Assembly: GCA_027067385.1 (NCBI GenBank)
Contig: JAMOVV010000023.1
Span: 1 to 59,683, forward strand
Direction: 5' to 3'
DNA from: Desulfarculaceae bacterium
GTDB taxonomy: Bacteria > Desulfobacterota > Desulfarculia > Desulfarculales > Desulfarculaceae
DNA: 59,683 nt
The stretch's first letter is position 1. The number at the start of each line of letters is the position of its first letter. Shown here one piece after another: positions 6,511 to 58,791 of this stretch. The notes under the pieces are model-generated. The model made no database searches. It was not told the origin of the DNA and worked only from the letters and a program-made list of their open reading frames with translations. Both the position numbers and the translations under genes were made by a program.

Positions 6511-8034
6511 ATGAGACTTAAACCAACCATCCGGCGCTTGCTCTATGCCCTGCTGGGGCTGCTGCTATTGACCACCCCGGCCCAGGCCAGGCCCATCCAA
6601 CGGCCGTGGAACCTGGCCGTGGTCCTGGACCTCAGCCAGAGCATGGGCCGGGAATGGCTCGGCTCCAGCCGGGTCCAGGTCTTGGAGCGCGCCCTGGGCG
6701 TGGAGCTGCGGAGCCTGCCGCGCCGGATCACCGCCGGGCTGTGGGCGGCCGCCGGCGGGCGGGTCCACCGTCTCATCGCCCCCTGCTCCGCGGCCCGGCT
6801 CAAGGGCGTGTACCTGCGCCTGCCGCGTCCCGGCGGCCACGGCGCCGTGACGGCCGCCCTGGAACGGGCCGCCGGTTGGCTGCAAAAAAACGGCGGCGGC
6901 TCCCTCCTGCTGCTCACCGGCCCCGACCCGCCCGCCGCACCGAAGGCCCTGCTCGACCGCCTGGAAAAGGCCAGCGTCTTTTGGCACATCTTCGCCGTGG
7001 CCCCGGGACCGGCCGCCAGGCGCATGAGAACCGCGGCCGCCATGGGCGGCGGGCTGCTGATCACCAGCGATCGGCCCGCTGATACCGCGCGCCTTTTAAG
7101 GCGCGCGGTAAGCGCGGCGCTGAGCCCGACCTTTGTACAAGTGTTGACCTATGATCAAAACAACAGACCTTTGCACCTGCCTTTTACCTTGCAGCGCCGC
7201 GACCAGGCCTGGGGCCTGGTCAGCGGGCGGGCGCACCGCCGTTTGCAGTTGCCATCCGGGGTGTACCGGCTATCGTGGCCTCAGGGCCCGCCGCCGTCTG
7301 CGGCCGCCCGGGCGCGGGTAGTAAACATTCCACGCCAGGGCACGGTCAAGCTATGGATCGGCGGCCGGTGCCGGCTGCTGATCCAGGCCCGAGACGCGAG
7401 GGGCCGGCCGCTGGCCTGGAAGGTAAAGGTGAGTGACATCGACAGCGGCCGGTTGATCACGCCGTACAAGCCGGCGCCGCTGGAGCTCAGCCTGTCCAGC
7501 GGCCGTTACCTGGTGCGCAGCCTTTCGCCGGCCCACCAGCGGCAGGTGGAGTTGGCGGCCGGCCAACGGGTGGAGATGATCCTGGGACCGCCGGGCCGGC
7601 TCACGGTAAAGCTGGCCGGTCCCCTGGGGCCGGTGCGCCTGCCCTACCGGGTGGTGGACCTGCGGGCCGGCCGGCGGGTGGCCACCGGTTACAGCAACTC
7701 GCCGATGGTCCTGCTGCCGGGCCGCTACCGCCTGGAGCCGGCCTTGTATCCGCCGCTGGTGCGCCAGGTGGTCATGCCGCCGGGCGGCCGGGTGGTGGTG
7801 GAGTTACCCCTGCTCGGCATGCTGCACATCAAGCGGTCCCGGGCAGCAGCGGCGCGGCGCTACCAAGTGCAGACCCCCTCGGGCCGGCGGGTGGCCAGCG
7901 GCAAGGGTCAACGCTACCTGCCCCTGGGCCCGGGGCGCTACCTGGTGGTGTTTGGTGGCGGGCACGCGGTAGCGGTCCAGGTTCGGGCCGGTCGGCTCAG
8001 CACCGTCACGGCGCCGGCCACCGAGTCTGATTGA
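6511..8034 (+). CDS. Secreted vWA-domain protein with four repeated beta-sandwich-like modules
   Basis: Signal peptide LLGLLLLTTPAQA and MIDAS-like VVLDLSQSMG (DxSxS). A G-x-Y-[RL]-[LV] motif recurs four times (GVYRLSW, GRYLVRS, GRYRLEP, GRYLVVF). Confidence 0.7.
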   Translation: MRLKPTIRRLLYALLGLLLLTTPAQARPIQRPWNLAVVLDLSQSMGREWLGSSRVQVLERALGVELRSLPRRITAGLWAAAGGRVHRLIAPCSAARLKGVYLRLPRPGGHGAVTAALERAAGWLQKNGGGSLLLLTGPDPPAAPKALLDRLEKASVFWHIFAVAPGPAARRMRTAAAMGGGLLITSDRPADTARLLRRAVSAALSPTFVQVLTYDQNNRPLHLPFTLQRRDQAWGLVSGRAHRRLQLPSGVYRLSWPQGPPPSAAARARVVNIPRQGTVKLWIGGRCRLLIQARDARGRPLAWKVKVSDIDSGRLITPYKPAPLELSLSSGRYLVRSLSPAHQRQVELAAGQRVEMILGPPGRLTVKLAGPLGPVRLPYRVVDLRAGRRVATGYSNSPMVLLPGRYRLEPALYPPLVRQVVMPPGGRVVVELPLLGMLHIKRSRAAAARRYQVQTPSGRRVASGKGQRYLPLGPGRYLVVFGGGHAVAVQVRAGRLSTVTAPATESD

Positions 8035-11896: not shown

Positions 11897-12859
11897 TTAG
11901 CTGAAATCATAGTCCGGCCGCTGGCGCATCTGGCTAAGCACCACCACGGTGGCCGCCGCGGCCTTTTGCACCGGCTCGTGGGTATCGGCCAAAAGGGCGG
12001 CGGCGGCCTCCAGGGCCTCGGTGGCGCGCACGTTGGCCAGGGCCTTGAGGCAGGCCTCGCGCACCGCGGCGTCGCGGTCGCCGAGACCCTTACGCAGGGA
12101 ACCCACCACCGCGGCGTCCTTGTGCCGGGTGTTGCCCAGGGCGATGGCCGCCACCCGGCGCACCGCGTCGTCCTGGTCGTCCATCAGGCCGGTGAGGGCC
12201 TCCACCGCCCGCTTGGCCTTGAGGTGGTTCAAGGCGATAACCGCCTCGCGCCGCACCGAGGCCTCGGGATCGCTCAACAGCTTGATCAGCCCGTCCACCG
12301 CCCGCTCTTCGCGCAGGCGGCCCAGGCAGGCGGCCGCGGCGGCGCGCACGGCCGGCTCCTGGTGCTCCAGCAGGGCCAGCATCTCGTCACGCCCGCCGGT
12401 GGATTCCAGGTTGCCCAGCCCGGCCATGGCCGCCTCCATGAGGCTGGCCTGGCCGGAGGCCAGCGCCCCCAACAGGGCATCCTCGGCCACCTGGGGCTGG
12501 ATGCGGTTCAGGGCCACCGCTGCGGCCCGTTTCACCTCGGGGTGGGTCTCGCCATCGGAGGCCGGCGGGGCCGACTTGGTAAGGGCGGCCGCGGCCAGCA
12601 CCTTTTGGCGCAGGTCGGCCTCGCTGGCCTTTAGCAGGCGGCGCAAAAAGGGCACCGCCCCTTGCGAACCTATCTTGCCCAGGGCCTCGGCTGCGGCCGC
12701 CTGGACCTGCCACGCCTGGTGCCCCAAGGCCTTGAGCAGGCCACGTTCGGCCGGGGCCAGCCCCAGCAGGCCGGCCAACATGCAAGCGGCCCGGACTATA
12801 TTGGGGTCTTCCTTATCCAAAGACTCCAGCACTACGGTTTCGAGTTGTTCGGCCATCAC
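11897..12859 (-). CDS. HEAT-repeat (PBS-lyase-like) protein
   Basis: 320 aa made of repeated ~31-aa units of the type D..VR..A..ALG... Confidence 0.75.
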   Translation of the reverse strand: MMAEQLETVVLESLDKEDPNIVRAACMLAGLLGLAPAERGLLKALGHQAWQVQAAAAEALGKIGSQGAVPFLRRLLKASEADLRQKVLAAAALTKSAPPASDGETHPEVKRAAAVALNRIQPQVAEDALLGALASGQASLMEAAMAGLGNLESTGGRDEMLALLEHQEPAVRAAAAACLGRLREERAVDGLIKLLSDPEASVRREAVIALNHLKAKRAVEALTGLMDDQDDAVRRVAAIALGNTRHKDAAVVGSLRKGLGDRDAAVREACLKALANVRATEALEAAAALLADTHEPVQKAAAATVVVLSQMRQRPDYDFS

Positions 12860-12948: not shown

Positions 12949-12977
12949 GCGCCGCCGGCCCGTTAGACCGGCGGCGC
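12949..12977 (-). terminator. GC-rich hairpin downstream of the GlcD-HdrD fusion gene
   Basis: gcgccgccgg / ccggcggcgc form a 10-bp stem. On the minus strand the stem is followed by TCATTTAT. A second short hairpin lies at 12993-13010. Confidence 0.5.
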
Positions 12978-13019: not shown

Positions 13020-15611
13020 CTACTTGGCCAGGCGCTTGGCCACCAACTCGGTGATGTCGGCCACCTTGATCTTGCCCAACCCCTCCTTGCGGGCGCGGGC
13101 GGCGGCCTGGTTCAGCGAGTTTTTACACGAGGGGCAGGCGCTCACCACCATGTCAGCCCCCTGGTTGATGGCCGTCACGATGCGCTCCAGGGCGATATCA
13201 GAGCCCAGTTGGTTGGCGTAGGCCTTCACCCCGCCGCCGCCGCCGCAGCACTTGGCCAGGTTGCGGTTCTGGGGGAACTCCAGCAGCTCGACCCCGGGCA
13301 GGGCCTTGATCACGTTGCGCGGCGGCTCGAATATCTGCAGGTGGCGGCCCAGGTCGCAGGGGTCGTGATAGATCACCTTGGTGGCCTTGGCCTTGTCCTT
13401 GAACTTGAGCTTGCCCTCGCCGATGAGGCGTTCCATGGTCTCCACGATATGCTCGGGCCGGTAGCCGTCGTGGTAGCCGTACTCGGGATAGAGGTGGTCG
13501 AAGGTCTTGTGGCAGCCGGCGCAGGTGGTGAGCAGGGTCTTGACCCCGGCCTTTTTAAAGGCCCTCTTGTTCTTGGCGGCCACCTTCTTGAAAGTGGCCA
13601 TGTCGCCCACCAGGTAGGCCAGGTAGCCGCAGCAGTTCTCCTTGGTGCCCTCGGTCTTGAAGGGCACGCCGGCGGCGTCGAGAATCTTCATCACGCTGGG
13701 GATGATCTTGACGTCCTGGTAGGAGGAGGAGCATCCCAGGTGCAGCAGGGTGTCGGCCTTGGGATTGTCGGCGTAGCCCACGGGATAGCTGTCGGTGCGG
13801 GTCTCGCGCGGCAGGGCGTAGGGATTACCCTTGTCGATCATGTCGGACATGAGCTGCTTGAAGGTTTTGGGCAGGCGTCCGGCCTCGGCCACCCGGACGC
13901 GGGCGGCCTGGATCACCTTGGCCACGTCCACCTGGGCCGGGCAGGTGTACTTGCAGTTGAGGCACATCATGCACTGGTACAGGCGGTCGCCCATCTCGGC
14001 GGTGGGCTTGGCCGCGCCGGTGAGCAGGCTGAAGGCCAGGGAGATGCGTCCGCGGGCGTTCATGGTCTCGATGGTGGTCTGGCCGTAGGTGGGGCAGCCC
14101 AGCTTGCAGAAGCCGCACTGGATGCAGGCCACGATCTCGTTATCCACCCCGGTGCCGAAGGAGACCACCTTGTCCGAGCCCTTGCGCAGGGGCTCGAAGC
14201 CGTTTTTGGCGTACACGTCGCGGATGGAACCCTTGAGCCCCTCCTTGCCGGGGTTGAGGATGTTCTTGGGGTCCAGGGCGTCCTTGATCGACTGCATCAC
14301 CGCGATGCCGGCCTGGCCCAACTCGGTCTTGAGGTAGGGGCTCTTGGCCATGCCCACCCCGTGCTCGGCGCTCATGGTGCCTTCCATGGCGGCGGTGACC
14401 TCCACCAGTTCCAGGGCGATCTTCTTCACCGCCTCCCACTCCTTGGCCTTCTTCACGTCCATGATGAAGGTGGCGTGCAGGTTGCCGTCGCCGATATGGC
14501 CGAAGGTGGCGATGGGGAAGCCGTACTTTTCGCCGATGGCCTGGATCTCCTTGATGGTCTGGGGAATCTTGGTCATGGGCACCCCGAAGTCCTCCATCAA
14601 GGGCACCAGGCGGTAGCCCGGCTTGAGCCGGCTCATGGCCGGCACCAGCTTGTGGCGGGCCTCCCACAGGGGGGCCTTCTCGGCCTCGTCGTCGGTCCAG
14701 TTGTGCGAAAGCACGCCGTGGGACTCGGCGATTTTATTCACCTGCTCGACGTTGTCCATCACCGCCGCCTTGTGGCCGTCGATCTCCATCATGATCATGC
14801 AGCCGATGTTCGCCGGCAGGTCCAGGCCGATGCTCTTGCGCAGCACCTCGATGGAGACGTTGTCCAGTATCTCGCAGGTGGCGATGGGGATGCCGCTGGT
14901 GAGCATCTCGGTAACCGCTTGGCCGGCGCTGTCGATGTCGGGGAAGTCCAGGCGGGCGCTGATGGCGTACGGCGGGGTGGGGATGATCTTCACCGTGGCC
15001 TCGGTCACCACGCCCAGGGTGCCCTCGGAGCAGCTAAACAGGTGGGTGAGATCGTAACCGCTGGAGGTCTTGGGCGCGGCCGAGCCGGTCTTGACCACGG
15101 TGCCGTCGGCCAGCACCACGGTGAGCCCCATGACGAAGTCCTTGGTGGTGCCGTACTTGATGGCCCGGATGCCGCTGGCGTTGGTGTTGATCATGCCGCC
15201 GATGGTGGCGATAGCCGCCGAGCCGGGGTCGGGCGGGAAGAAGTAGTTGTCCTTGGCCAGGGCGCCGTTGAGCGCGGCGCAGACCACGCCGGGCTCCACC
15301 CGGGCGTAGTGGTCGGCCAGGTTGACCTCCAACACCCGGTTCATGCGCACCAGGTTGAGGATGATGCCGCCCTTGGCGGCCAGGGCCGCGCCGGTAACCG
15401 AGGTGCCGCCGCCGCGGGGGGTGACCGGCACGCCCGCCCGGTGGCAGGTCTCCATGATTTGGGACACCTGCTCGGTGGTCTCGGCAAAGACCACCGCCTT
15501 GGGTATCGCCATGTGTACCGACATGTCGCGCGAATAGCCCAGGCAGTCGGTCCGGCTGGTCAGTACGTTTTCGGCCCCTACGATCTTCGCCAGTTTGGCC
15601 GCGATTTCCAT
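13020..15611 (-). CDS. Fusion protein: FAD-linked (GlcD-type) 2-hydroxyacid dehydrogenase + 2x[4Fe-4S] + two CCG (HdrD/GlpC-like) domains
   Basis: 863 aa. N-terminal FAD-binding PVTPRGGGTSVTG. Middle CIQCGFCKLGCP and CMMCLNCKYTCP. C-terminal CCGY..., PCDLGRH, CCGGGGG, ACPSCK. Confidence 0.9.
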   Translation of the reverse strand: MEIAAKLAKIVGAENVLTSRTDCLGYSRDMSVHMAIPKAVVFAETTEQVSQIMETCHRAGVPVTPRGGGTSVTGAALAAKGGIILNLVRMNRVLEVNLADHYARVEPGVVCAALNGALAKDNYFFPPDPGSAAIATIGGMINTNASGIRAIKYGTTKDFVMGLTVVLADGTVVKTGSAAPKTSSGYDLTHLFSCSEGTLGVVTEATVKIIPTPPYAISARLDFPDIDSAGQAVTEMLTSGIPIATCEILDNVSIEVLRKSIGLDLPANIGCMIMMEIDGHKAAVMDNVEQVNKIAESHGVLSHNWTDDEAEKAPLWEARHKLVPAMSRLKPGYRLVPLMEDFGVPMTKIPQTIKEIQAIGEKYGFPIATFGHIGDGNLHATFIMDVKKAKEWEAVKKIALELVEVTAAMEGTMSAEHGVGMAKSPYLKTELGQAGIAVMQSIKDALDPKNILNPGKEGLKGSIRDVYAKNGFEPLRKGSDKVVSFGTGVDNEIVACIQCGFCKLGCPTYGQTTIETMNARGRISLAFSLLTGAAKPTAEMGDRLYQCMMCLNCKYTCPAQVDVAKVIQAARVRVAEAGRLPKTFKQLMSDMIDKGNPYALPRETRTDSYPVGYADNPKADTLLHLGCSSSYQDVKIIPSVMKILDAAGVPFKTEGTKENCCGYLAYLVGDMATFKKVAAKNKRAFKKAGVKTLLTTCAGCHKTFDHLYPEYGYHDGYRPEHIVETMERLIGEGKLKFKDKAKATKVIYHDPCDLGRHLQIFEPPRNVIKALPGVELLEFPQNRNLAKCCGGGGGVKAYANQLGSDIALERIVTAINQGADMVVSACPSCKNSLNQAAARARKEGLGKIKVADITELVAKRLAK

Positions 15612-15781
15612 GACGGTTCCTCCCGGGGCGACCCCGCCGGGCGGCCCCTAAAACACCGGGGAGAGGCCGATGGACCCCTCCCCGTGAATATTCTACTGAC
15701 CACGCCGGGTAAAGGTGCGGGGCGCGCGGCCCCACCCTCCCGGCGTGCAATATCGATAATAAGCAAGCACCATGGCCGGCC

Positions 15782-16201
15782 TTACTTGTCCATCTTCTCG
15801 ATCTCGGCGCTCACCCATTTCTTGTAGGCGTCGCCCTGCATCAGGTTGCCCAGCTCGGCGTCCAGGTCGCTGGGCTCGATCTTGGCGATCCAGCCCTTGC
15901 CGTAGCAGTCCTGGTTGATCAGCTCGGGCTCGTCCTCCAAGTCCTCGTTGCCCTCGGCGATCTCCCCGGAGACCACGGCGTAGACCCGGCCCACCCACTT
16001 GCCGCTCTCGATGGAGCCGAAGGGTTTGCCCTGGGTAACCTCGTCCTCTTCCTCGGGCACGTCCACGAAGGTGATCTCGCCGGCCAACTTCTGGGTCAGG
16101 TCGGTGGTGCCCATGATCACCAGGTCACCGTCCACCTTGGCCCAAAAATGGTTTTGATCGTAATAGAGGTCGTCGGGGAAGTTATAGCCTTTAACCTTCA
16201 T
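15782..16201 (-). CDS. GcvH-like lipoyl-carrier protein
   Basis: 139 aa. Sequence YYDQNHFWAKVDGDLVIMGTTDLTQKLAGEITFVDVP...SIESGKWVGRVYAVVSGEI aligns with the H-protein lipoyl-lysine region ESVKAASDIYAPVSGEI. Confidence 0.85.
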   Translation of the reverse strand: MKVKGYNFPDDLYYDQNHFWAKVDGDLVIMGTTDLTQKLAGEITFVDVPEEEDEVTQGKPFGSIESGKWVGRVYAVVSGEIAEGNEDLEDEPELINQDCYGKGWIAKIEPSDLDAELGNLMQGDAYKKWVSAEIEKMDK

Positions 16202-16309
16202 GGGTGTATTCCTCCAGCCCTTGCGTGGGTGTTTTACATTTCCGGGGCCGGCCGTCGCCGGCGGCCGCTGTCCGTACTCCTAATATTTTATCACGCCGCC
16301 GCGCGGCGG

Positions 16310-17182
16310 TTACTTAAAGGCTTTCACCAGGTCCTTGGGCTTGATCCGGTTCAGCTTGAAGCCCAGTTCCTTGGGCTTGAAGCCCAGGGCCAGCCCCAGC
16401 ACCTGGGTGACGTAGACCACCGGCACCTTGAGCTCGGTCGCCAGCTTCTTGGCGATGGTCTTTTGCTGGCCCTCGTACATCACGTTGCAAAAGGGACACA
16501 GCAGGGCCAGGGCGGTCACCTCCCGCGCCGCCAGGTCCACCAGCTTGGTGCCGGCCATGCGACCGGCCAGCCGCTCGTCGGCCCCCAGCACGCCGCCGCC
16601 GCAGCACTCCTTCATAGAGTCGTAGGCCACCGCCTCGGCCCCGGTGAGCTCGATGAGCCGGGCCAGGCTGGTGGGGTCCTCGGGGTCGTCCAGGCCGCCG
16701 AGCACTTGGCTGGGCTTGAGGTAGTGGCAACCGTAGTGGGGCGCAAAGCTGAATCCCTCCAGGCTGCGGGTGAGCTTTTTCTTAATGGCCGCCTCGCCCA
16801 CGTCTTCGAGCAAAAAGCGCACCAGGTGCTTCACCCGCACCCCCGGCCGGTAGGCCAGCCCCAGGGGGGCCAGCTCGCGGTTGACCCGCCGGCGGGCCGC
16901 GGCGTCGTGGTCCAGGTGGTGGGCCGCCTCGGCCAGGGTGCCGGTGCAGGCCGAGCACAGCGGGGTGAGGGTGAGCCCGCCCTCGCCGGCCTGGGCCAGG
17001 GCGCGGGCCGCGATGACCAGGGCGGCCGCCTGGTCGGTGGCCTTGAGCGGGAAGCCGCAGCAGCCGGCCTCGGTCAGGTCGCGGAGCTTCACCCCCAGGG
17101 CCGCGGCCACCTTGCGGGCCGATAGTTCGTAGTTCAGGTTGCGCACCGGCACGGTGCATCCCAGGTACAGCAGCGCCTCCAT
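16310..17182 (-). CDS. hdrB: Heterodisulfide reductase subunit B-like (two CCG domains)
   Basis: True start is MEALLYLGCTVP at 17182 (the ORF track extends further upstream). Motifs: CCGFP, CSACTG, CCGGG, CPFC. One-nt overlap with the hdrC stop. Confidence 0.85.
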   Translation of the reverse strand: MEALLYLGCTVPVRNLNYELSARKVAAALGVKLRDLTEAGCCGFPLKATDQAAALVIAARALAQAGEGGLTLTPLCSACTGTLAEAAHHLDHDAAARRRVNRELAPLGLAYRPGVRVKHLVRFLLEDVGEAAIKKKLTRSLEGFSFAPHYGCHYLKPSQVLGGLDDPEDPTSLARLIELTGAEAVAYDSMKECCGGGVLGADERLAGRMAGTKLVDLAAREVTALALLCPFCNVMYEGQQKTIAKKLATELKVPVVYVTQVLGLALGFKPKELGFKLNRIKPKDLVKAFK

Positions 17183-17664
17183 CAGCTCTTCCCCCCGGCT
17201 GGCTCGACTCCCAACACTTTCTGGAAGTGGGCCGGGGCCTCCGCCACCTCGGGCAGCCCCAGGTCGGTCCGCCGCTGGTTCTCGAACTCGCCCACCTCCA
17301 GCAGCCGGCCGTGGGCGGCCAGTTGGTCGATGACGGCCTCGGTGGCCGGCGGGCCGTAGCCGGCGCGGGCCGCGATATTCTTGATGGCTGTGAGCACCTC
17401 GGTGAAAGACACCTGCTGGGGGCAGACCTCCTGGCAGGAGTAGCAGGTGGAGCACAGCCAGATCAGGGGGCTGGCCAGCACTTCTTCCCGCCGGCCCAGC
17501 AGGACCAGCCGGATGAGGCGCCGGGGGTCGTAGCCTTCCACGTGGCCAGCCACCGGGCAGCGGGCGGTGCAGGCGGCGCAGGCGAAACAGGCCTTGATGC
17601 CCTGGCCGCCGGGCTCGGCGGCCACCTGGTGCTTAAAGCCGGGATCACAGTCGTTGAGCAGCAT
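17182..17664 (-). CDS. hdrC: Heterodisulfide reductase subunit C-like (2x[4Fe-4S])
   Basis: 160 aa with CFACAACTARCP and CSTCYSCQEVCP. Confidence 0.85.
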   Translation of the reverse strand: MLLNDCDPGFKHQVAAEPGGQGIKACFACAACTARCPVAGHVEGYDPRRLIRLVLLGRREEVLASPLIWLCSTCYSCQEVCPQQVSFTEVLTAIKNIAARAGYGPPATEAVIDQLAAHGRLLEVGEFENQRRTDLGLPEVAEAPAHFQKVLGVEPAGGKS

Positions 17665-17666
17665 GT

Positions 17667-19523
17667 CTATTTCTCCCCGGCCGTTTGGGCCAGCTCGGCC
17701 ACCGCCTGGGCCAGGGCCCGGGGTTGATTGGATGCCAGGTGCATAAAGCGCACCTGCTCGGGCCGGCCGCCCACCTGGGCCAGCAGATCAGCCGCCTCGC
17801 CGGAGCGCAGCTTGGCCCGCAGGTTGCCGTTTAACGAGCGGCAGTTGCCCTGGTGGCAGCCGGCCACCAGCACTCCGCCGGCTCCCAAAGACAGGGCCCG
17901 CAGGATTAGCTGGACGCCCACCCGGCCGGCGCAGTTGACCGGCACCATCAAGAGCCCCTTGGGCCACTGGTGCCCGGCCAGGCTCAGGGCGCGGGCCGCG
18001 TCCATGCCGGAGTTGCGGCAGGCAAACAGCACCAGCTTGTCGCCGGCGGCCGCCTTGAGCCCGGCGGCCAGGGACGCGATCATCTCGCGGTTGGACCAGC
18101 CCGGCGGGGCGATGGCCTCGGCCGGGCACTCGGCGGTGCACACCCCGCAGGCCAGGCAGGCGGCCGGGGCGGGGGCGATGTGGTCCTCGGCGTAGCACAC
18201 CACGCCGTGGGGACAGACCCGCACGCAGGTGAGGCAGGAGGCGCATAACACGTCGCGCACCGCCGGCACCGCCACCGCCTCGCCCGAAAGCAGGCCGTGC
18301 AGGTCGGCCGCCGCGGCCGCGGCCTGGGCCCGGCGCGGGTCGCCCGGGGCGGCGCCGCGCGCCCCGCCGATGAGATAGAGCCCGCTGCGGGCGGTGCGGC
18401 CGGCCTGCAGGCGGGGATGGTCGGGCAGGTCCTGGTCCCAGGCCGTGGTGACCAGGGGGTTGTCCAGCCAGGCCGGGGCCCGGCCGGTAACCTCCTCGCT
18501 AAGCACCACCAAGTCGGGCCGCAGGTCCACCGGCTCGCCGAGCACCGGGTCGTCGAAAGACAGCTTGCGGCCGTCGCGGCTCACCCGCAGCCCGCCGGGC
18601 TCCACCCGCATGGCCAGCACCCCCTGGCGCCGGGCGTCGCGGTAGAGCCGCTCGCCGCCCTCGGAGGCCACCTTGGCCTCGCCCAGGAACAGGGTGACCT
18701 GCACCCGGGGCCGCTTTTGCAGGGCCAGGGCCGCGGTCACCGCCCGGGCAAAGCCGTGGGCCGTGGCCCCGGGGCCCAGGGGCGCGATCACCGCCGCTTG
18801 CAACCACTGTTCGCCGCCTTGGTACTGCTTGGGCTTAAGCCGGCTCACCGGCAGGGTGATGTCTTCGGCCGTGGCCGGCATGTCGCCGGGCACCGCGTAG
18901 GCGCTGGGCGGGGCCAGCACCACCGCCCCGAAGCGCCGCCGGCTGGTGCGGCGCGGACCCTGCAGCCGGGCCTGGAAGTCGCCGCCGGCCCCGAGCAACT
19001 CCACCAGCTCGGTGCCGGTGACCACCTCCACCTGGGCCGGCAGCCCGGCCAGGGCCCGTTTCACCTCGGCCGGTTTCTCGTCGGCGCAGGCGGCCCGGGC
19101 CCGGGTGGTCTCCAGGGCCAGCAGCACCGGGTGGCCCAGGGCGGCGGCCTGGTGGGCCGCGGCCACGGCGGCCAGGCCGCGGCCGGCCACCAACACCTCT
19201 TGGTTGGGCTGGCGGGTGTAGCGCTGGGCCATGGTGCCCAGGGCGGCCGAGCCGGCCGCGCGGGCCACCGCGGCCGCGGCCCGGGCCTGGCGCAGGGCCA
19301 GGGGACCGCCGCCCACCTCGGCGGCCAGGTCCAACCACTTCACCGGGTAGCCCTTGAGCCGGTTGACCAGGCTGCGGGGGGCCCGCGCCTCGGTGGTGGT
19401 CACCACCGCCGCCTCCACCAGCCCGCCGTCAGACAGCGCCACCCCGGCCTTCTTGGCCGCCTTGGCCGGGTCCAGCCCCTCCAGCCCCGCTTCCTCGATC
19501 CAGATGAGGCTCACCTCAGGCAT
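17667..19523 (-). CDS. HdrA/QmoB-like oxidoreductase with 2x[4Fe-4S] and a C-terminal MvhD domain
   Basis: 618 aa. Dinucleotide fold VLVAGRGLAAVAAA. CASCLTCVRVCP and CLACGVCTAECP. MvhD-like FACRNSG...VNCAGRV...AGCHQGNC. Confidence 0.8.
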   Translation of the reverse strand: MPEVSLIWIEEAGLEGLDPAKAAKKAGVALSDGGLVEAAVVTTTEARAPRSLVNRLKGYPVKWLDLAAEVGGGPLALRQARAAAAVARAAGSAALGTMAQRYTRQPNQEVLVAGRGLAAVAAAHQAAALGHPVLLALETTRARAACADEKPAEVKRALAGLPAQVEVVTGTELVELLGAGGDFQARLQGPRRTSRRRFGAVVLAPPSAYAVPGDMPATAEDITLPVSRLKPKQYQGGEQWLQAAVIAPLGPGATAHGFARAVTAALALQKRPRVQVTLFLGEAKVASEGGERLYRDARRQGVLAMRVEPGGLRVSRDGRKLSFDDPVLGEPVDLRPDLVVLSEEVTGRAPAWLDNPLVTTAWDQDLPDHPRLQAGRTARSGLYLIGGARGAAPGDPRRAQAAAAAADLHGLLSGEAVAVPAVRDVLCASCLTCVRVCPHGVVCYAEDHIAPAPAACLACGVCTAECPAEAIAPPGWSNREMIASLAAGLKAAAGDKLVLFACRNSGMDAARALSLAGHQWPKGLLMVPVNCAGRVGVQLILRALSLGAGGVLVAGCHQGNCRSLNGNLRAKLRSGEAADLLAQVGGRPEQVRFMHLASNQPRALAQAVAELAQTAGEK

Positions 19524-20616
19524 GGGCCGCCTCCCGAACCAGGGGCTGGAGATGCCCGGCGGCCGCAGCCGCGGCCACCGCCCCGTGCTCTATGGACTCC
19601 ACGATGGACATGGGCCCCCGGGCCGAGCCGGCGATGAAGACACCGGCCGCCCCACTGGCCACCGGCTCGGCGTCGGAGCCCAAAAATCCGTCGCTGGTGC
19701 GGGTGCAGGCAAAGAGCTGGCTCAGGGCCGCCGCGCCCACCGGCGGACGCATCCCTTGGCTCAGCACCACCAGGTCGAACTCGGCGGTCTGGCTGCGGCC
19801 GCCGGCGGCGTAGACCACCTGGGGTCCGCCCGGGCCGGCGGTCACCTCGCCGGGCATGGCCCGCACAAAGTTCATTTGCTCTCGCATCTCCGCCAGCTCC
19901 CCGGCCCAGGCGCGGCCGTAGGTCTGCACGTCCATGTGGAAGAAGGTTATCTCGGTCCCGGGCCGGCGGGCCTGGATCACCCGGGCCATGCGCAGGGCGA
20001 ACCCGCAGCACACCCGGCTGCAATATAGATGACCCAGGGACTCGTCGCGGCTGCCCACGCACTGGATAAAGGCCACCCGCCGCGGGTCGCGCCCCCCGGC
20101 CAACTCGGCCAGGGAGTGCTCCAGGGCGCCCTCCAGCTCCAGGGCGCTCACCACGCCGGGCACCCGGCGATAGCCGAAACGACTCTTGGCCGAGGGGTCA
20201 AACGGCGTGGCCCCCACCGCCAGGATCACCGCCCCGGCCTGGACCTGGCTGCGCCGCGGCAGCGGCCCACCGGCCAGCTCCACCACCGGGGCCGGTCCGT
20301 TGTTGCGCTGGGGCTCCAGGGTGAGCCGCCAGCCATCGCCATCGGCCTCGGCGGCCACCGGCTTGGCCGAGGTGTAAATCGCTATCTCCGGCCGGGCGGC
20401 AACCCGGCGTACCAGGTCGGCCAAACGGCAGGCCCCGCAGCGGACGCAAGAGTCGGTCGCCTTGCAGCAGAAATCGGCCACCCGGCCCCCTAAACGGGGG
20501 CCGCGCTCCACCACCAGCGAGGATAGCCCCCGCCGGGACAGATCGATGGCCGCCGCCAGCCCAGCCACGCCGCCCCCGATGATGACGGCTGGCGTTTTAA
20601 TTGTCTTAACAGCCAC
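19516..20616 (-). CDS. HdrA/QmoA-like FAD-dependent subunit
   Basis: 366 aa with VIIGGGVAGLAAA and the HdrA signature CVGSRDESLGHLYCSRVCC. An 8-nt overlap (ATGCCTGA) with the next gene. Confidence 0.85.
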   Translation of the reverse strand: MAVKTIKTPAVIIGGGVAGLAAAIDLSRRGLSSLVVERGPRLGGRVADFCCKATDSCVRCGACRLADLVRRVAARPEIAIYTSAKPVAAEADGDGWRLTLEPQRNNGPAPVVELAGGPLPRRSQVQAGAVILAVGATPFDPSAKSRFGYRRVPGVVSALELEGALEHSLAELAGGRDPRRVAFIQCVGSRDESLGHLYCSRVCCGFALRMARVIQARRPGTEITFFHMDVQTYGRAWAGELAEMREQMNFVRAMPGEVTAGPGGPQVVYAAGGRSQTAEFDLVVLSQGMRPPVGAAALSQLFACTRTSDGFLGSDAEPVASGAAGVFIAGSARGPMSIVESIEHGAVAAAAAAGHLQPLVREAAHA

Positions 20617-20726: not shown

Positions 20727-20756
20727 TTGACAAGCCGCGATTTTCCCGCCTATAGT
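20727..20756 (+). promoter_or_regulatory. Candidate sigma70 promoter for the dehydratase operon
   Basis: TTGACA (20727-20732), N18, TATAGT (20751-20756), about 120 nt upstream of the start codon. Confidence 0.4.
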
Positions 20757-20769
20757 GCGTAATAGCTGG

Positions 20770-20799
20770 ATTGTAGCTAACATGTAATCATTTTGTCTA
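20770..20799 (-). promoter_or_regulatory. Candidate sigma70 promoter for the Qmo/Hdr-like operon
   Basis: The minus strand reads TAGACA-N18-TACAAT. It interdigitates with the plus-strand candidate. Confidence 0.3.
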
Positions 20800-20881
20800 C
20801 CCGTTTTTCGCTTTTCGCGCCGCTTTTTTTGTCTGCCGGCAGGTTTTTGCGGCCGGCGCGAGAGGCCCTCGAAGGATGGTT

Positions 20882-22105
20882 ATGCCTCCCATCAAAGCCA
20901 CCAAGCAGATGAAAAAGCTCATGGAAGACCACTTCCTGGGACTGGCCAAGGCCAAGGAGGAGGGCAATCCCAAGGTGGCCTGGTGCACCTCGGTGGGGCC
21001 GGCCGAGCTGCTGCACGCCATGGGCTTTGATGTCTACTTCCCGGAGAACCACGGGGCCATGCTGGGGGCCACCCGCATGGCCACCGATCTCATCCCCGAG
21101 GCGGTGGCCGCCGGCTACTCGCCGGAGATATGCTCCTACCTCACCTCGGACGTGGGATCCTACCTGGCCGGCCAGACCCCGCTGACCCGGGCCTATGGCC
21201 TGGAGTCGGTACCCCGGGCCGACGTGCTGGTGTTCAACAACAACCAGTGCCGGGAGGTGCAGGACTGGTTCATGTTCTACGCCCGGGAGTGGGACGTGCC
21301 CCTGGTGGGCATCAACAACCCGCGGGTGATCCACGAGGTGAAGGAAAGCCACGTGGCCGACGTTAAGAGCCAGATGCACGACATGATCCCGGTGTTGGAG
21401 CAGGTCAGCGGCAACAAGTTCGACATCGACCGTTTCCGCGAGGTGGTGGGGCTGTCCAAGCAGTGCACCATCCGCTGGCGCAAGGTGCTCGAGGGGGCGG
21501 CCCACCACCCCAGCCCCATGACCTTCTTCGACCACTGCATCCACATGGCCCCGGCGGTGGTGCTGCGCGGCAAGCAGGAGGCGGTGGACTACTACGACCT
21601 GCTGCTGGCCGAGATCGACCAGATGGTGCAAGACCAGGTGGCGGCGGTGCCCGGGGAGCAGGTGCGCCTGTACTGGGACGGCATGCCGGTGTGGGGACGG
21701 CTGCGTATGCTCTCGGAGCTGCTGAACGAGCTGCAGGCGCCCATCGTCTCCTCCACCTACTGCAACTCCTGGATTTTCGACGCCCTGGATGAGCGCGACC
21801 CCTTCGACTCCATGGCCCGCGCCGCCCTGGAGCTGTTCAACGTGCGCGACGATGACTTCAAGGAGGGCTATGTCAAGGAGTGGGTGGAGCGTTGCGGGGT
21901 CGCGGGCATCATCTTCCACGACGCCAAGACCTGCCCCTACAACACCAACAGCCGCTTTGCCATGCCCCAACGTCTGTCTCAGGAACTGGGTCTGCCCACC
22001 CTGGTGATCAACGGCGATCTCAACGACCTGCGCTTTTTCAGCGACGAACAGGCCAAGACCAACATCGAGGCCTTCGTGGAGCAGTTGTTGGAGCAGGCGG
22101 CCTAG
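20882..22105 (+). CDS. 2-hydroxyacyl-CoA dehydratase family protein (D-component; HgdB/BcrC-like), single subunit
   Basis: About 407 aa. N-terminus PKVAWCTSVGPAELLHAMGFDVYFPENHGA is typical of the family. ATG at 20882 has better spacing to GAAGGA than the ATG at 20876. Confidence 0.85.
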   Translation: MPPIKATKQMKKLMEDHFLGLAKAKEEGNPKVAWCTSVGPAELLHAMGFDVYFPENHGAMLGATRMATDLIPEAVAAGYSPEICSYLTSDVGSYLAGQTPLTRAYGLESVPRADVLVFNNNQCREVQDWFMFYAREWDVPLVGINNPRVIHEVKESHVADVKSQMHDMIPVLEQVSGNKFDIDRFREVVGLSKQCTIRWRKVLEGAAHHPSPMTFFDHCIHMAPAVVLRGKQEAVDYYDLLLAEIDQMVQDQVAAVPGEQVRLYWDGMPVWGRLRMLSELLNELQAPIVSSTYCNSWIFDALDERDPFDSMARAALELFNVRDDDFKEGYVKEWVERCGVAGIIFHDAKTCPYNTNSRFAMPQRLSQELGLPTLVINGDLNDLRFFSDEQAKTNIEAFVEQLLEQAA

Positions 22106-22129: not shown

Positions 22130-22906
22130 TTGGCGAGCCATTTTGCCGGTATAGACGTGGGAGCCAGCGCCACCAAGGTGGCGGTGGTCGATGAACAAGG
22201 CGATCTCCAGGGCCACGCGGTGCGCCGTTCGGGGGTGGACTTCGCCGCCAGCGCCCAGGAGGGCTTCCAGCGGGCCCTGGCCATGGCCGGGCTGCAGGCC
22301 CAGGACATTGCCGGGGTGATATCCACCGGCTACGGCCGCAAGAACGTGCCCTTTGCCGGCGCCAGTCGCACCGAGATCGCCTGCCACGGAGCCGGAGCCT
22401 ACTTCCACTATCCCCAGGCGATAACCGTGGTGGACATCGGGGGCCAGGACAACAAGATCATCAAGTTGGACGCCCAGGGCCGGCGCAAATCGTTCAAGAT
22501 GAACCGTAAGTGCGCCGCCGGCACCGGGGCCTTCTTGGAAGAGATGGCCCTGCGCCTGGACCTGGAACTGGGCGCCATGAACCAACTGGCCGCGGCGGCC
22601 CGGGAGGAGGTCACCCTGGGGGCCTTTTGTACCGTGTTCACCGGCACCGAGCTGCTGAGCAAGATTCGCGAGGGGGTGCGGGTGGAGCCGCTGGTCAAGG
22701 GGCTTTTCCGGTCGGTGGTCAAGCGGGTGCGGGAGATGGACACCCTCACCAACCTGGTGGTGATGACCGGCGGGGTGGTGGCCCACAACCCGTTTCTCAT
22801 GGAGATGATGGCCCAGGAGGTGGGGCGCGAGGTGGTGACCACCCCCCGTCCCCAGCTCAACGGGGCCTGGGGTGCGGCCCTGCTGGCCCGTGACCAACTG
22901 ACGTAG
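22130..22906 (+). CDS. BadF/BadG/BcrA/BcrD-type ATPase (dehydratase activator, HgdC-like)
   Basis: 258 aa. GIDVGASATKVAVV, the cluster-bridging Cys contexts NRKCAAGTG and AFCTVF, and MTGGV. TTG start preceded by GGGAG. Confidence 0.85.
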   Translation: MASHFAGIDVGASATKVAVVDEQGDLQGHAVRRSGVDFAASAQEGFQRALAMAGLQAQDIAGVISTGYGRKNVPFAGASRTEIACHGAGAYFHYPQAITVVDIGGQDNKIIKLDAQGRRKSFKMNRKCAAGTGAFLEEMALRLDLELGAMNQLAAAAREEVTLGAFCTVFTGTELLSKIREGVRVEPLVKGLFRSVVKRVREMDTLTNLVVMTGGVVAHNPFLMEMMAQEVGREVVTTPRPQLNGAWGAALLARDQLT

Positions 22907-23004: not shown

Positions 23005-24588
23005 ATGAATCGCTGGTTGACCGTTGGCGACATACTCCGGGTAAACGCCACCATGTTCGCCGACAAGGAGGGAGCGGCAGACCTGTACAGGTCGCTTACC
23101 TTTAAGGAGTGGAACGAACGCTGCTGCCGCCTGGCCAACGCCCTGGCCGACCGCGGGCTGCAAAAGGGTGACCGCATAGCCATGATCGCCTTCAACTGCC
23201 TGGAGTGGTTGGAGTTCTACGGCGCCTGCGCCAAGGGCGGTTTCGTGGCGGTGCCGATCATGTTCCGGCTCACCCCGGCGGAATACGGCTATATCCTCAA
23301 CAACGCCGAGTGCAAGGCCTTCATCGTGGAAAAGCCCTTTGCCGATGACGTGGCCGGGGCCAAGGCCGACCTGGAGACCATCGACGCCGACAAGTACTTC
23401 TTCTTTGGCGAGGGGGACGCGCCCGAGGGCTTTGTGCACCTGGAGGACCTGTTCAAGGAAGGTTCGGCGGTGGAGCCCCCGGTGAAGGTGATCGACGAGG
23501 ACACCTGGATCATCATGTACACCTCCGGCACCACCGGCCGTCCCAAGGGCGTGGTGCGCACCCACGAGTCGCTGGCCGGCAAGTACTGGACCAACATCGC
23601 GGCCATGGGCTACGACCGCGACGACCGGGGCCTGTTGGTGATGCCCATGTGCCACATCAACAGCGTCTTCTACTCCTTTGTCTTCACCTGCCTGGGGGCC
23701 GCGGCCATCGTCTACAATTCGGTGTCCTTCGACCCAGAGCACATGATCAAGACCCTCAGCGAGTTCGGGGTGACCTTCACATCCCTGGTGCCTACCCACT
23801 ACATCATGATGCTGGCCCTGCCCGAGGAGGTTAAGAGCAAGTACAACGTGGACTGCGTCAAGAAGCTGCTCATCTCCTCGGCCCCGGCCCGGCGCGATCT
23901 CAAGCTGGCCATCATGGACTACTTCAAGAACAGCCAGCTCTACGAGGCCTACGGCTCCACCGAGGCCGGCCTGGTCACCCTGCTGCTGCCCGACGAGCAG
24001 TTCGACAAGCTCGGCTCCATCGGCCGCGAGATACCGGGTACCGACCTGCTCAAGATTCTCGACGAGGACGGCAACGAGGTGCCCGACGGCGAGGTGGGCG
24101 AGCTCTACTCCCGCGGGCCGGCCCTGTTCAGCGAGTACTGGAAGCTGCCCGAGGAGACCAAGGCCGCCTTTGTGGGCGACTTCTTCAGCGCCGGCGACAT
24201 GGCCTACCGCGACCAGGAAGGTTACTACTACCTGGTGGACCGCAAAAAGAACATGATCATCACCGGCGGCGAGAACGTCTACCCCTCGGAGGTGGAAGAC
24301 TGCATCGGCGGCCACAACGCGGTCAAGGACGTGGCGGTCATCGGGGTGCCCGACGAGAAATGGGGCGAAAAGGTCACTGCGGTGATCATCCTGCACGATG
24401 GTTACCAGCCCACCGACGAGCTGGCCGCCGAGCTGCGCGACTTCACCAAGGGCAAGATCGCCGGCTTCAAACGGCCCAAGGCCGTACACTTTGTGACCGA
24501 AGAAGAAATGCCCCGCACCGGCACCGGCAAGATCCTGCACCGCGTGCTGCGCGAGCGCTACGGCCACTGGTCCGAGGCCGAGAAATAG
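23005..24588 (+). CDS. AMP-dependent acyl-CoA synthetase/ligase
   Basis: 527 aa with YTSGTTGRPKGV, YGSTE, SAGDMAY, GKILHR. Confidence 0.85.
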   Translation: MNRWLTVGDILRVNATMFADKEGAADLYRSLTFKEWNERCCRLANALADRGLQKGDRIAMIAFNCLEWLEFYGACAKGGFVAVPIMFRLTPAEYGYILNNAECKAFIVEKPFADDVAGAKADLETIDADKYFFFGEGDAPEGFVHLEDLFKEGSAVEPPVKVIDEDTWIIMYTSGTTGRPKGVVRTHESLAGKYWTNIAAMGYDRDDRGLLVMPMCHINSVFYSFVFTCLGAAAIVYNSVSFDPEHMIKTLSEFGVTFTSLVPTHYIMMLALPEEVKSKYNVDCVKKLLISSAPARRDLKLAIMDYFKNSQLYEAYGSTEAGLVTLLLPDEQFDKLGSIGREIPGTDLLKILDEDGNEVPDGEVGELYSRGPALFSEYWKLPEETKAAFVGDFFSAGDMAYRDQEGYYYLVDRKKNMIITGGENVYPSEVEDCIGGHNAVKDVAVIGVPDEKWGEKVTAVIILHDGYQPTDELAAELRDFTKGKIAGFKRPKAVHFVTEEEMPRTGTGKILHRVLRERYGHWSEAEK

Positions 24589-24676: not shown

Positions 24677-25870
24677 ATGTTCACCAAGTCGTTTATCCCC
24701 CACAAGGGCTACTGGTCCTCGCCCTTTTCCCGATGGCAGATGTCCTTCCAGAACGAGCACGCCATCGTACTGGCTGCGGCCACGACCAAAAAATTCTTCG
24801 AGCTGCGCCAGATAGACCCCGCCGTCTTTGACTGGGGCGTACTGGGCATGACCATCGGCCAGAAATCCTGGTTCTACGCCTGCCCCTGGTACTGCGCCCT
24901 GGCCGGGGCCGAGAAGATCGCCGGCCCCACCATCAGCCAGGCCTGCGCCACCAGCGCCACCTCCATCTACACCGGCGCCGCCGCGGTGGAGCTGGGCAGC
25001 GCCGAGTGCGTGCTGGTGGGCACCACCGACCGCTGCTCCAACGGCCCCCACACCGTGTGGCCCAATCCCAAGGGTCCCGGCGGCGAGGTGATCCACGAGA
25101 ACTGGCTCATGGACAACTTCAACATCGACCCCTGGGGCGGCGAGGCCATGGTCAAGACGGCCGAGAACGTGGCCGCCGACCACGGCGGGGTCACCAAGGA
25201 AGAGTCCGACGCCCTGGCCCTGCGGCGTTACGAGCAGTACCTCATGTCCCTGGAAAACGACCGCGCCTTCCAAAAAGAATACATGATCCCGGTGGACATC
25301 AAGGTCTCTAAGAAAAAGACCATCACCATCGAAGGGGATGAAGGCATCATGCCGGTGACCGCCGAGGGCCTGGCCCCGCTCAAGCCGGTGGTGCCCGGCG
25401 GCTCCATCACCTTCGGCGCCCAGACCCACCCGGCCGACGGCAACGCCGGCTTCGTGGTCACCACCGAGGAAAAGGCCAAGGAGCTCAGCGCCGACAAGAG
25501 CATCACCATCCAGATACTCTCCTACGGCTACGCCCGGGCCCCCAAGGCCCGCATGGCCGCCGCGGTCACCCCCTCGGCCGAGATGGCCCTGGCCAAGGCC
25601 GGCATCGGCGTGAGCGATCTGGCCGCGGTGAAGACCCACAACCCCTTCACCGCCAATGACATCGTCATGGGCCGCCTGATGAAGATACCCGAGGAGATAT
25701 TCAACAACTACGGCTCCTCGCTGGTCTTCGGACACCCCCAGGGTCCCACCGGCGCCCGCTGCACGGTGGAGCTGATCGAGGAACTCGTCAAGCTCGGCGG
25801 CGGCTACGGCCTCTTTGCCGGCTGCGCCGCCGGCGACACCGCCGCGGCCCTGGTGATCAAGGTCTCCTAG
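24677..25870 (+). CDS. Thiolase-family protein (divergent acetyl-CoA acyltransferase-like)
   Basis: 397 aa. Nucleophile context ISQACATSAT, then GHPQGPTGAR and C-terminal GCAAGDTAAAL. The N-terminus is atypical. Confidence 0.8.
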   Translation: MFTKSFIPHKGYWSSPFSRWQMSFQNEHAIVLAAATTKKFFELRQIDPAVFDWGVLGMTIGQKSWFYACPWYCALAGAEKIAGPTISQACATSATSIYTGAAAVELGSAECVLVGTTDRCSNGPHTVWPNPKGPGGEVIHENWLMDNFNIDPWGGEAMVKTAENVAADHGGVTKEESDALALRRYEQYLMSLENDRAFQKEYMIPVDIKVSKKKTITIEGDEGIMPVTAEGLAPLKPVVPGGSITFGAQTHPADGNAGFVVTTEEKAKELSADKSITIQILSYGYARAPKARMAAAVTPSAEMALAKAGIGVSDLAAVKTHNPFTANDIVMGRLMKIPEEIFNNYGSSLVFGHPQGPTGARCTVELIEELVKLGGGYGLFAGCAAGDTAAALVIKVS

Positions 25871-44770: not shown

Positions 44771-44956
44771 CTTGAATCCTTCCTTGGGGGTAATATTATT
44801 GCGAATTGTTACTAACTATTATCACTAAAGTACCCGGCAAAGTCAAGCCGGCAGCATGGGGCCGCGGTGCCGGCGGCCGCGGCGCCGGCATCGGTCTGGA
44901 TTGACACCGGCCACAGCGGCTGCCAGTATGGGCGGGAATTCTGCGGGATCGTAGGC

Positions 44957-58764: not shown

Positions 58765-58791
58765 GGTGCATATCTCCGCGTGGCCAAAGGG

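Follow-up and report, generated by a model that had tools for sequence, protein, structure and literature searches.

A GcvH-like putative lipoyl carrier encoded beside hdrCB in Desulfobacterota, a candidate disulfide substrate for a soluble Hdr-type complex

Which disulfide serves as the substrate of a soluble heterodisulfide reductase (Hdr) type complex in a bacterium which is not expected to make coenzyme M or coenzyme B (CoM/CoB)? The question is raised by six genes on the minus strand of a 59,683-nucleotide (nt) stretch of DNA from a Desulfarculaceae bacterium (assembly GCA_027067385.1, contig JAMOVV010000023.1), hereafter the window, which has a G+C content of about 68% and belongs to a metagenome contig of 106.6 kb (ENA ERZ27262658, k141_359081). 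For HdrABC- and HdrD-like enzymes of bacteria and non-methanogenic archaea we know of no thiol/disulfide substrates apart from DsrC and the LbpA of sHdr systems. The first four genes (A to D) encode Hdr-type proteins, the fifth (E) a GcvH-like protein and the sixth (F) an FAD dehydrogenase; the letters G to J designate the divergent plus-strand genes beside them. We propose that A to D form a soluble Hdr complex whose disulfide substrate would be the lipoate of E acting as a dedicated carrier, and that F would use the same carrier, a reading whose chances we hold to be evenly poised. The hdr operon comprises the following genes, with product lengths in amino acids (aa):

19516..20616, minus strand: A, HdrA/sHdrA-like FAD flavoprotein, 366 aa (Pfam, NCBIfam and PDB searches)
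17667..19523, minus strand: B, sequence-degenerate HdrA-like protein fused to a C-terminal FlpD/MvhD, 618 aa (domain searches, AlphaFold2 (AF2), Foldseek)
17182..17664, minus strand: C, HdrC, 160 aa, two [4Fe-4S] motifs at C26 and C71 (TIGR03290, 5e-30)
16310..17182, minus strand: D, HdrB, 290 aa (TIGR03288, 1e-62; full-length alignment to PDB 5ODC_B, E 4e-51)
15782..16201, minus strand: E, ‘ESGKWVGR’-type GcvH-like protein and putative lipoyl carrier, 139 aa (GCV_H match)
13020..15611, minus strand: F, FAD dehydrogenase of the D-2-hydroxyacid (D-lactate/glycolate) type, in one chain with 2x[4Fe-4S] and two CCG motifs, 863 aa (Pfam, NCBIfam, PDB)

All six co-directional open reading frames (ORFs) of the preliminary description were recovered at these coordinates, and the gene calls of the source contig, with which they were compared, are identical. 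The tight packing reported there (8-nt overlap of A and B, 2-nt gap between B and C, 1-nt overlap of C and D) is likewise borne out, the C/D overlap depending on the use of the internal ATG at 17182 as the start of HdrB, and the domain content assigned to the six products was confirmed by the Pfam, NCBIfam and PDB sequence searches. Longer gaps separate D from E (108 nt) and E from F (170 nt).

To follow the linkage beyond this genome, relatives of E were scanned in one genome per GTDB species with the two most conserved peptides of its clade. At least 561 genomes encode such a relative; the best 80 loci were inspected, the window proteins being run against them by tblastn and the ORFs of the loci being called by a simple length and GC3 heuristic. 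Their hosts belong to the Desulfarculales, Desulfomonilales and Syntrophales. The link between Hdr and GcvH, first noticed in this single genome, is clearly conserved outside it: of the 74 species-level loci with sufficient flanking sequence, 66 have hdrB as the immediate upstream neighbour of gcvH. Out of 63 loci, 56 contain hdrC and 44 contain all four genes A to D. Recurring in dozens of genomes, the gene set is no chance pattern.

The conserved core is the hdrC-hdrB-gcvH-like unit, while its flavoprotein partner varies. Two loci (L031, L033) show hdrC-hdrB-gcvH without A or B. In a Syntrophaceae metagenome-assembled genome (MAG; UBA2188, L074 9992-16871) the order gcvH-hdrC-hdrB is followed by the gene of a 1503-aa HdrL-type protein, which consists of two HdrA-like parts and a GltD-like NAD(P)H domain, and by mvhD, an I-type CoA ligase gene being divergent. 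In Desulfomonilaceae and Syntrophaceae a gene for a MetV homologue (PF12225) stands directly upstream of A in 25 loci, accompanied by one for MetF (PF02219) in 7. PdxS, PdxT, TruA, DnaX and others encoded downstream in Desulfomonilaceae were considered and rejected as parts of the system; they reflect housekeeping synteny.

E retains the lipoyl lysine (Lys68), and its ESGKWVGR hairpin is invariant in a set of relatives obtained with HMMER. With the H-protein of the glycine cleavage system it shares the fold, the lipoyl-lysine hairpin and the hidden Markov model (HMM) score. It differs from it, however, in having H[F/Y]W for HEW and K-W-V-G-R for K-x-x-x-D: compared to the H-proteins of T. thermophilus and M. 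tuberculosis, the Glu of HEW is replaced by Phe19 and the Asp at position K+4 by Arg72, and clade-wide the former is Phe or Tyr while the latter is an invariant Arg. Glu14 and Asp67 of the pea H-protein reportedly help to lock the aminomethyl-lipoyl arm. The loss of the HEW Glu and of the K+4 Asp thus argues against a role of E in glycine cleavage. A further difference concerns the neighbourhood, as neither the window nor the recurrent, annotated gene families around the loci yielded gcvT, gcvP or lpd; at the left end of the source contig, too, there is none of these genes and no lipoate gene. From its sequence E looks like a dedicated lipoyl carrier, not a housekeeping H-protein.

An exhaustive HMMER search for relatives of E among 1.84 billion cluster representatives (50% identity) revealed that the nearest representatives are mostly of the “GKW” type, the canonical “HEW / ESVKAxSD” type accounting for 51 among the best 150. 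The close relatives (63-89% identity), all named “GcvH” in their sources, stem from Desulfarculaceae, Desulfomonilaceae and related MAGs. Five GKW-type relatives were looked up, one of which (L093) lies on a 513-bp contig without neighbours, leaving four contexts; in these four the GKW subfamily occurs beside CCG enzymes or lipoylation genes and never beside gcvT/gcvP. In an Anaerolineae locus (L088 4038-6727) a stand-alone GKWVGR GcvH-like gene is followed by genes for a NarI/HdrE-like cytochrome b and an HdrD-like CCG protein. In a second locus (L095 465-5926) the GKW gcvH-like gene lies among genes for a multihaem cytochrome c, a DsrK/HdrD-like protein, DsrE, DsrE, DsrH, TusA, DsrE and a CCG protein. 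A 53%-identical relative of E (L091) is adjoined by genes for LplA, LplB, a GGR-like flavoprotein and two LipS-like radical SAM proteins, a cluster typical of the sLpl/LipS lipoylation pathway, and in L094 the GKW gcvH-like gene adjoins LplA. As side observations, the Anaerolineae arrangement may constitute a membrane-bound counterpart of the hdrCB-gcvH unit, and L095 represents a sulfur-relay context unlike classical sHdr clusters. One further locus (L044 5045-5992) carries two tandem gcvH-like genes; in the product of the first, HLW and an unusual hairpin (LKTSRPGG) are accompanied by a strongly acidic tail, and that of the second is of the GKWVGR type. An interpretation as a pair of one canonical and one GKW copy was rejected, both copies being non-canonical.

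The nearest known counterpart is the sHdr-LbpA system of Hyphomicrobium denitrificans and Thioalkalivibrio. It resembles the present one in that a cytoplasmic Hdr-like complex, whose flavoprotein is short and sHdrA-like and whose HdrB carries CCG clusters, is linked genetically to a lipoate-binding homologue of GcvH outside glycine cleavage; sHdr systems always use such homologues (Cao et al. 2018, PMC6067878). The two systems nevertheless differ in several respects. A single hdrCB pair is present here as opposed to the arrangement hdrC1B1A-hyp-hdrC2B2, the HdrA-MvhD fusion B is additional, the hosts are anaerobic Desulfobacterota, and the neighbours belong to carbon metabolism (GlcD-type, HadB-type, MetVF). 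Bacterial LbpAs are recognised by the lipoyl Lys together with two strictly conserved Cys (PMC6067878), one N- and one C-terminal, both of which are missing in E; 49 of 71 orthologues have Pro in place of its sole Cys, C99, and E is closer to GcvH. Neither TusA, DsrE, DsrE3 nor rhodanese was found among the window ORFs scanned or the recurrent neighbour families of the 80 Desulfobacterota loci, and the maturation genes sLpl(AB)/LipS1/LipS2 were found neither in the window nor in the parts of the contig seen, with no ligase family among the recurrent neighbours. Lacking two hdrBC pairs, sulfur transferases, the LbpA Cys and nearby maturation genes, the locus was rejected as a member of the sHdr group. 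The best reading of this comparison would be that of a new variant on the sHdr-LbpA theme in a setting of carbon and energy metabolism. No description of a Desulfobacterota hdrCB-gcvH unit was found in the searchable full-text literature, which takes in few subscription-journal papers; two related ideas do exist, however: for Culexarchaeia it has been speculated that GcvH might serve HdrB (PMC9723716), and for the MetVF of acetogens a scheme with GcvH and LpdA was considered and judged unlikely by its authors (PMC8760232).

Is the Hdr part complete enough to act on such a carrier? The sequence of A comprises GxGxxG, the cluster motif CVGSRD-x7-CSRVCC (C186...C199, C203, C204; the spacer had been given as x8) and an extra CX5CX2CX2C cysteine group, and its motif Cys and Gly are kept in 44-48 of 48 orthologues. 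In the PDB it matches methanogen HdrA (E 2e-52) and, over its full length, sHdrA (6TJR, E 4e-36). The bifurcation signature defined for HdrA (E356/K409 in M. thermolithotrophicus numbering; PMC9430772) appears in A as E162 (E/D in 47 of 48) and R209 (R in 43 of 48), while the motif of this region is missing in B. With the glutamate retained and the lysine replaced by arginine, A may or may not bifurcate electrons. B contains two CxxCxxCxxxC motifs and the four Cys of MvhD, is devoid of the CVGSRD...C...CC cluster motif near the flavin, and has no Pfam match in its N-terminal 400 residues. Its AF2 model (pLDDT 87.8) is aligned by Foldseek over the full length with methanogen HdrA (8RVY_A and 5ODC_A), which identifies B as a degenerate HdrA-MvhD fusion. 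The ten Cys of D make up exactly two complete CCG motifs, i.e. the ligands for two noncubane [4Fe-4S] clusters, and all ten are conserved in 66-68 of 68 orthologues. The HdrABC catalytic module, with two CX31-39CCX35-36CXXC in HdrB and two [4Fe-4S] motifs in HdrC, is hence present.

The combination recalls three further systems. As in QmoABC, two HdrA-related proteins are paired, one short and one long with two [4Fe-4S] and an MvhD-like domain, and in the QmoAB-HdrCB variant of Gram-positive sulfate reducers such a pair is likewise followed by hdrCB. However, there is neither QmoC nor adjacency to aprBA, B does not possess the cysteine cluster motif, and hdrB is followed by the gene of the putative lipoyl carrier; C matches the qmoC model with its ferredoxin part only (63.6 vs 300 bits). 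The absence of QmoC/HdrE, apr and dsr genes from the vicinity, already noticed, was confirmed among the larger ORFs of the window. A genuine Qmo complex was therefore rejected, since the window contains neither QmoC nor apr, and the label “Qmo” previously given to the operon is a misnomer, the more so as B is a degenerate HdrA-MvhD fusion. With MvhADG-HdrABC of methanogens (5ODC) the locus has in common HdrB, HdrC, the HdrA fold, an MvhD domain and the ligands for two noncubane clusters; it differs in that it encodes no hydrogenase, that neither an inserted ferredoxin domain nor the K409 signature is evident, that its hosts are not expected to make CoM/CoB, and that the substrate proposed for it is protein-bound lipoate. 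With MetFV-HdrABC-MvhD of Moorella thermoacetica and Sporomusa ovata (PMC9430772) it shares the combination of HdrA, HdrB, HdrC and MvhD modules, and the relatives in Desulfomonilales and Syntrophales are actually joined to metV or metVF. It is set apart by the absence of metVF from the window, by an HdrA split into A and B instead of a giant subunit, and by the gcvH-like neighbour. For the Hdr-type methylene-tetrahydrofolate (THF) reductase of acetogens a “so-far-unknown” second acceptor has been described and “proteinogenic dithiols” have been suggested, while only free dihydrolipoate and glutathione were tried (PMC9430772).

F combines FAD_binding_4, FAD-oxidase_C, 2x[4Fe-4S] and 2x CCG in one chain, and all 18 of its Cys are kept in 29 of 29 orthologues. 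For the N-terminal half, matches were obtained to D-LDH (8JDC), glycolate oxidase and LctD; the C-terminal half scores best with TfrB (1.7e-44), the thiol-oxidising CCG subunit that couples a flavoenzyme to thiols in TfrAB. NCBIfam yields matches to YdiJ and LdhH without any equivalog cut-off being reached. F thus has the architecture known from Dld-II, YdiJ and GlcDEF; what distinguishes it from these enzymes and from TfrAB is that its gene directly follows that of a putative lipoyl carrier and is located beside an operon of the 2-hydroxyacyl-CoA dehydratase type. It is found directly after gcvH in 26 of 66 loci and, when present, always immediately after this gene. Two terminator-like hairpins flank F:

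15657..15684, minus strand: terminator- or attenuator-like hairpin between E and F, 12-bp stem (pattern match only)
12949..12977, minus strand: terminator-like hairpin 3' of F, 13-bp stem (pattern match)

The promoter and terminator calls given in this work are consensus matches, and terminator-like sites are not enriched over shuffles. With 26 of 66 loci and a terminator-like hairpin upstream, F, listed among the genes of the operon in the preliminary description, is an accessory module and not part of the core. The connection between the carrier and a GlcD-FeS-CCG enzyme, in contrast, holds up, for it is found in two independent gene orders and in fusion proteins. A second, distant group of loci (L048, L054, L065, L075, L082, L084) shows the co-directional order A-B-C-D-gcvH-F-G-H-I, in full hdrA'-metV-metF-A-B-C-D-gcvH-F-G-H-I, with an identity to the window proteins of about 53% for F and of 59-64% for G. 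That the linkage of F, G, H and I survives this rearrangement argues for a functional connection. The best representative match of the search with E is a 1391-aa Anaerolineae protein in which three GcvH-like domains precede an F-type FAD-FeS-CCG enzyme. Twelve clusters of such Anaerolineae fusions were found (953-1405 aa, 1-3 GcvH-like domains; P0172, P0322-P0332; L088 10001-14200; L089 10001-13690), the dehydrogenase part being 27% identical to F over 873 residues with the same architecture. In L089 and L090 the fusion gene is followed by genes for an HdrD-like protein, HdrA, MvhD and [NiFe]-hydrogenase. Fusions and Hdr neighbours together physically tie the H-protein fold to F-type enzymes and to Hdr.

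What would F deliver, and to whom? On the plus strand the hdr operon is faced by a divergent operon, which had escaped the preliminary description:

20727..20799, both strands: conserved bidirectional control region between A and G (consensus matches, genome comparison)
20876..22105, plus strand: G, HGD-D protein, HadB-like (2-hydroxyacyl-CoA dehydratase alpha; PDB 3O3M_A full length, E 5.5e-50)
22130..22906, plus strand: H, BcrAD/HgdC-type ATP-dependent activase (TIGR00241, 194.7 vs 125.4 bits; PF01869)
23005..24588, plus strand: I, AMP-forming acyl-CoA ligase (profile match)
24677..25870, plus strand: J, thiolase-like protein (profile match; conserved in Desulfarculaceae loci)

The HadB of the 3O3M_A comparison is the alpha subunit of 2-hydroxyisocaproyl-CoA dehydratase. 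No second HGD-D (beta subunit) gene was found in the locus, and a dehydratase or reductase that consists of a single subunit and has a dedicated activase (G, H) is unusual. G accompanies F in 21 loci, and orthologues of I (57-60% identity) adjoin gcvH-hdrCB in L048, L054, L074, L075 and L082, and gcvH alone in L069. In Desulfarculaceae, including Desulfocarbo indianensis and Dethiosulfatarculus sandiegensis, the divergent operon is always located beside A. The intervening region carries two predicted crossed sigma-70-like promoters, TTGACA-18-TATAGT on the plus strand (20727-20756) and TAGACA-18-TACAAT on the minus strand (20799-20770), whose predicted start points almost coincide. A palindrome, TTAGCTA-N5-TAGCTAA at 20762-20780, imperfect in the window, covers the -10 element of the predicted hdr promoter. 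Across 12 Desulfarculaceae genomes a core of about 80 nt hardly varies, although the sequences on either side of it diverge; as this core contains both promoter sites, the two operons appear to share one control region. Judged from the overlap of the sites, binding of RNA polymerase at the two promoters might be mutually exclusive.

Taken together, the following mechanism can be proposed. A to D would assemble into a cytoplasmic Hdr-type complex with A as the FAD/[4Fe-4S] flavoprotein and B, as an HdrA-ferredoxin-MvhD fusion, serving as a scaffold for electron transfer. The thiol/disulfide substrate would be the dithiolane of a lipoate attached to Lys68 of E instead of a small heterodisulfide, and the swinging arm of E would be reduced or oxidised at the CCG site of HdrB. 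In Desulfarculaceae the arm might also be used at a second CCG site, that of F, which could operate as a dihydrolipoyl-carrier:2-oxoacid reductase in the manner of the thiol:fumarate reductase TfrAB and supply a 2-hydroxyacid to the presumably co-regulated operon of the CoA ligase I, the HadB-like G with its activase H and the thiolase J. In the related orders the hdrCB-carrier unit would be joined to MetV/MetVF or to the NAD(P)H-binding HdrL instead. The pyruvate/lactate couple has a midpoint potential of about -190 mV. For methylene-/methyl-THF -200 mV is given (PMC9430772), and for lipoyl/dihydrolipoyl about -290 to -325 mV (PMC8760232). As the lipoyl couple lies some 100 mV below 2-oxoacid/2-hydroxyacid couples, electron flow from dihydrolipoyl-E to a 2-oxoacid would be favoured, which speaks against the opposite direction suggested at the outset, i.e. 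2-hydroxyacid oxidation feeding the carrier. Such a reduction of a 2-oxoacid also fits the adjacent CoA ligase and dehydratase-type genes. In amino-acid fermenters, genes for a CoA ligase and a 2-hydroxyacyl-CoA dehydratase-type enzyme form reductive branches. In a wider sense, GcvH homologues with GKWVGR could represent a general protein-bound disulfide for CCG enzymes of the HdrB/HdrD type in non-methanogenic anaerobes of several phyla, including MetVF-Hdr and F, the lipoyl carrier then being a diffusible two-electron shuttle between soluble redox complexes; this generalisation we consider possible but doubtful.

Several observations weigh against E being the redox partner of Hdr and F. The score of E exceeds, if narrowly, the NCBIfam equivalog cut-offs for GcvH (TIGR00527, 120.0 vs 115.85; NF002270, 145.3 vs 117), and E is 39% identical to E. 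coli GcvH, closer to it than published LbpAs are. The set of 80 loci was retrieved with the clade's own motifs, which makes the motif invariance there partly one by construction. In L035, L083 and L087 (around 10001) gcvH stands alone between its usual flanks with neither hdr nor metV; these flanks, a secreted 630-aa protein, a Zn-ADH and a small membrane protein, are those of Desulfomonilaceae hdr loci. F is missing from most loci and separated from E by the hairpin. We know of no evidence that the CCG domains of GlcF, GlpC, LutA and Dld-II use disulfides. The GcvH-like domains fused to F-type enzymes have no lipoyl Lys, which suits docking better than a redox arm; by their sequence they may be docking modules. 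Free dihydrolipoate, finally, had no effect on the MetVF-Hdr enzyme of Sporomusa (PMC9430772).

These points bear to a different extent on the alternatives. The Hdr-carrier pair and F could be independent of each other, with F being a dehydrogenase of the Dld-II/YdiJ type which passes electrons to quinone or another acceptor and merely lies downstream in some lineages. FAD-FeS-CCG fusions are indeed common, and in Dld-II and YdiJ this architecture functions with no lipoyl carrier. The YdiJ and LdhH matches of F, its presence in little more than a third of the loci and the hairpin behind E agree with this explanation, which we nevertheless consider unlikely as F, whenever present, comes right after gcvH, and does so in two operon architectures at about 53% identity, as GcvH-like and F-type parts are fused in Anaerolineae beside Hdr/Mvh genes, and as no membrane or quinone-binding subunit is encoded nearby.

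Still less probable, in our view, is that E is an ordinary H-protein which lies beside a MetVF-associated Hdr of the Wood-Ljungdahl pathway since both use methylene-THF, the Hdr substrate being another one, e.g. DsrC. Its scores above the GcvH thresholds and the name GcvH in the sources would be explained in this way, as would the metV or metVF genes directly upstream of the hdr genes and the three loci in which gcvH remains without hdr; clostridial Wood-Ljungdahl clusters, moreover, hold gcvH and lpdA too (PMC8760232). An ordinary H-protein is, however, difficult to reconcile with the clade-wide replacement of the two arm-stabilising residues and with the lack of gcvT, gcvP and lpd in the window and among the recurrent annotated neighbours of the loci. 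In addition, the adjacency is specific to hdrB and persists without metV as well as with a changed flavoprotein, and the sampled GKW relatives lie beside CCG, sulfur-transfer or lipoylation genes. The related suggestion of a lactate-utilisation cluster with a housekeeping gcvH was rejected, as LldEFG/LutABC, a permease, pta and ack are all absent and as the gcvH, which follows hdrB in three taxonomic orders, is of a non-canonical type.

E could also be a non-redox docking subunit with the H-protein fold which tethers F and MetV to Hdr and takes no part in lipoate chemistry. The fused Anaerolineae domains illustrate that the fold can persist without lipoate, yet Lys68 and ESGKWVGR are invariant in the free-standing members, including the Anaerolineae copy beside the HdrE/D-like genes, and genes resembling lipoate ligase and lipoyl synthase flank some relatives, so that we regard a purely structural E as very improbable. 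Least of all do we favour a sulfur-handling pathway of the sHdr-LbpA kind, in which the lipoyl arm would carry sulfane sulfur to be oxidised or reduced by the Hdr module: the full-length alignment of A with sHdrA, the GKW relative among DsrE, DsrH, TusA and DsrK-like genes and the constant association of sHdr with lipoate-binding GcvH homologues are outweighed by a window without TusA, DsrE, rhodanese, a second hdrC2B2, hyp or a dedicated ligase, by the lack of any sulfur-transferase or ligase family among the recurrent neighbours, which are those of carbon metabolism, and by an E with neither of the LbpA Cys and with a sole Cys that is mostly Pro elsewhere.

Under the proposed reading, with E as a lipoyl carrier serving Hdr, dozens to hundreds of Desulfobacterota species have the gene of a putative lipoyl carrier joined to hdrCB, in some cases within an operon that includes metVF, and E would be a concrete, assayable candidate for the missing substrate of bacterial Hdr modules. 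The pipeline label “glycine cleavage system protein GcvH” hides this hdrCB-carrier module, apparently as a systematic mis-annotation, and can lead to false calls of glycine cleavage or of the reductive glycine pathway in sulfate reducers and syntrophs.

As regards the remainder of the window, none of GcvT, GcvP, Lpd, MetF, MetV or lipoate ligase is encoded by its larger ORFs, the remaining ones of which are housekeeping genes, and an Rfam search of the gaps and 5' untranslated regions revealed no riboswitch or known RNA. A HEAT-repeat protein is encoded directly downstream of F (11897-12859, minus strand). Its gene recurs near F in several Desulfarculaceae loci; since it does so in either orientation, membership in the operon is improbable. 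A 507-aa ORF (6511-8034, plus strand) shows a strong coding signal without a match in Pfam or NCBIfam and is called in the source contig, too. The gene at 44324-46567, adjacent to a divergent flavodoxin gene, codes for a corrinoid-protein reductive activator of the RACo type, which marks the Wood-Ljungdahl pathway. A 1093-aa fused B12-binding/MeaB GTPase/mutase protein (55483-59460, minus strand), resembling the acyl-CoA mutase IcmF, has a gene for a TetR regulator adjacent to it. Another contig from the same sample (k141_119609, L096) codes for an identical TetR protein, together with FolD and an FTCD_C cyclohydrolase; this contig may belong to a related strain or represent an assembly duplicate.

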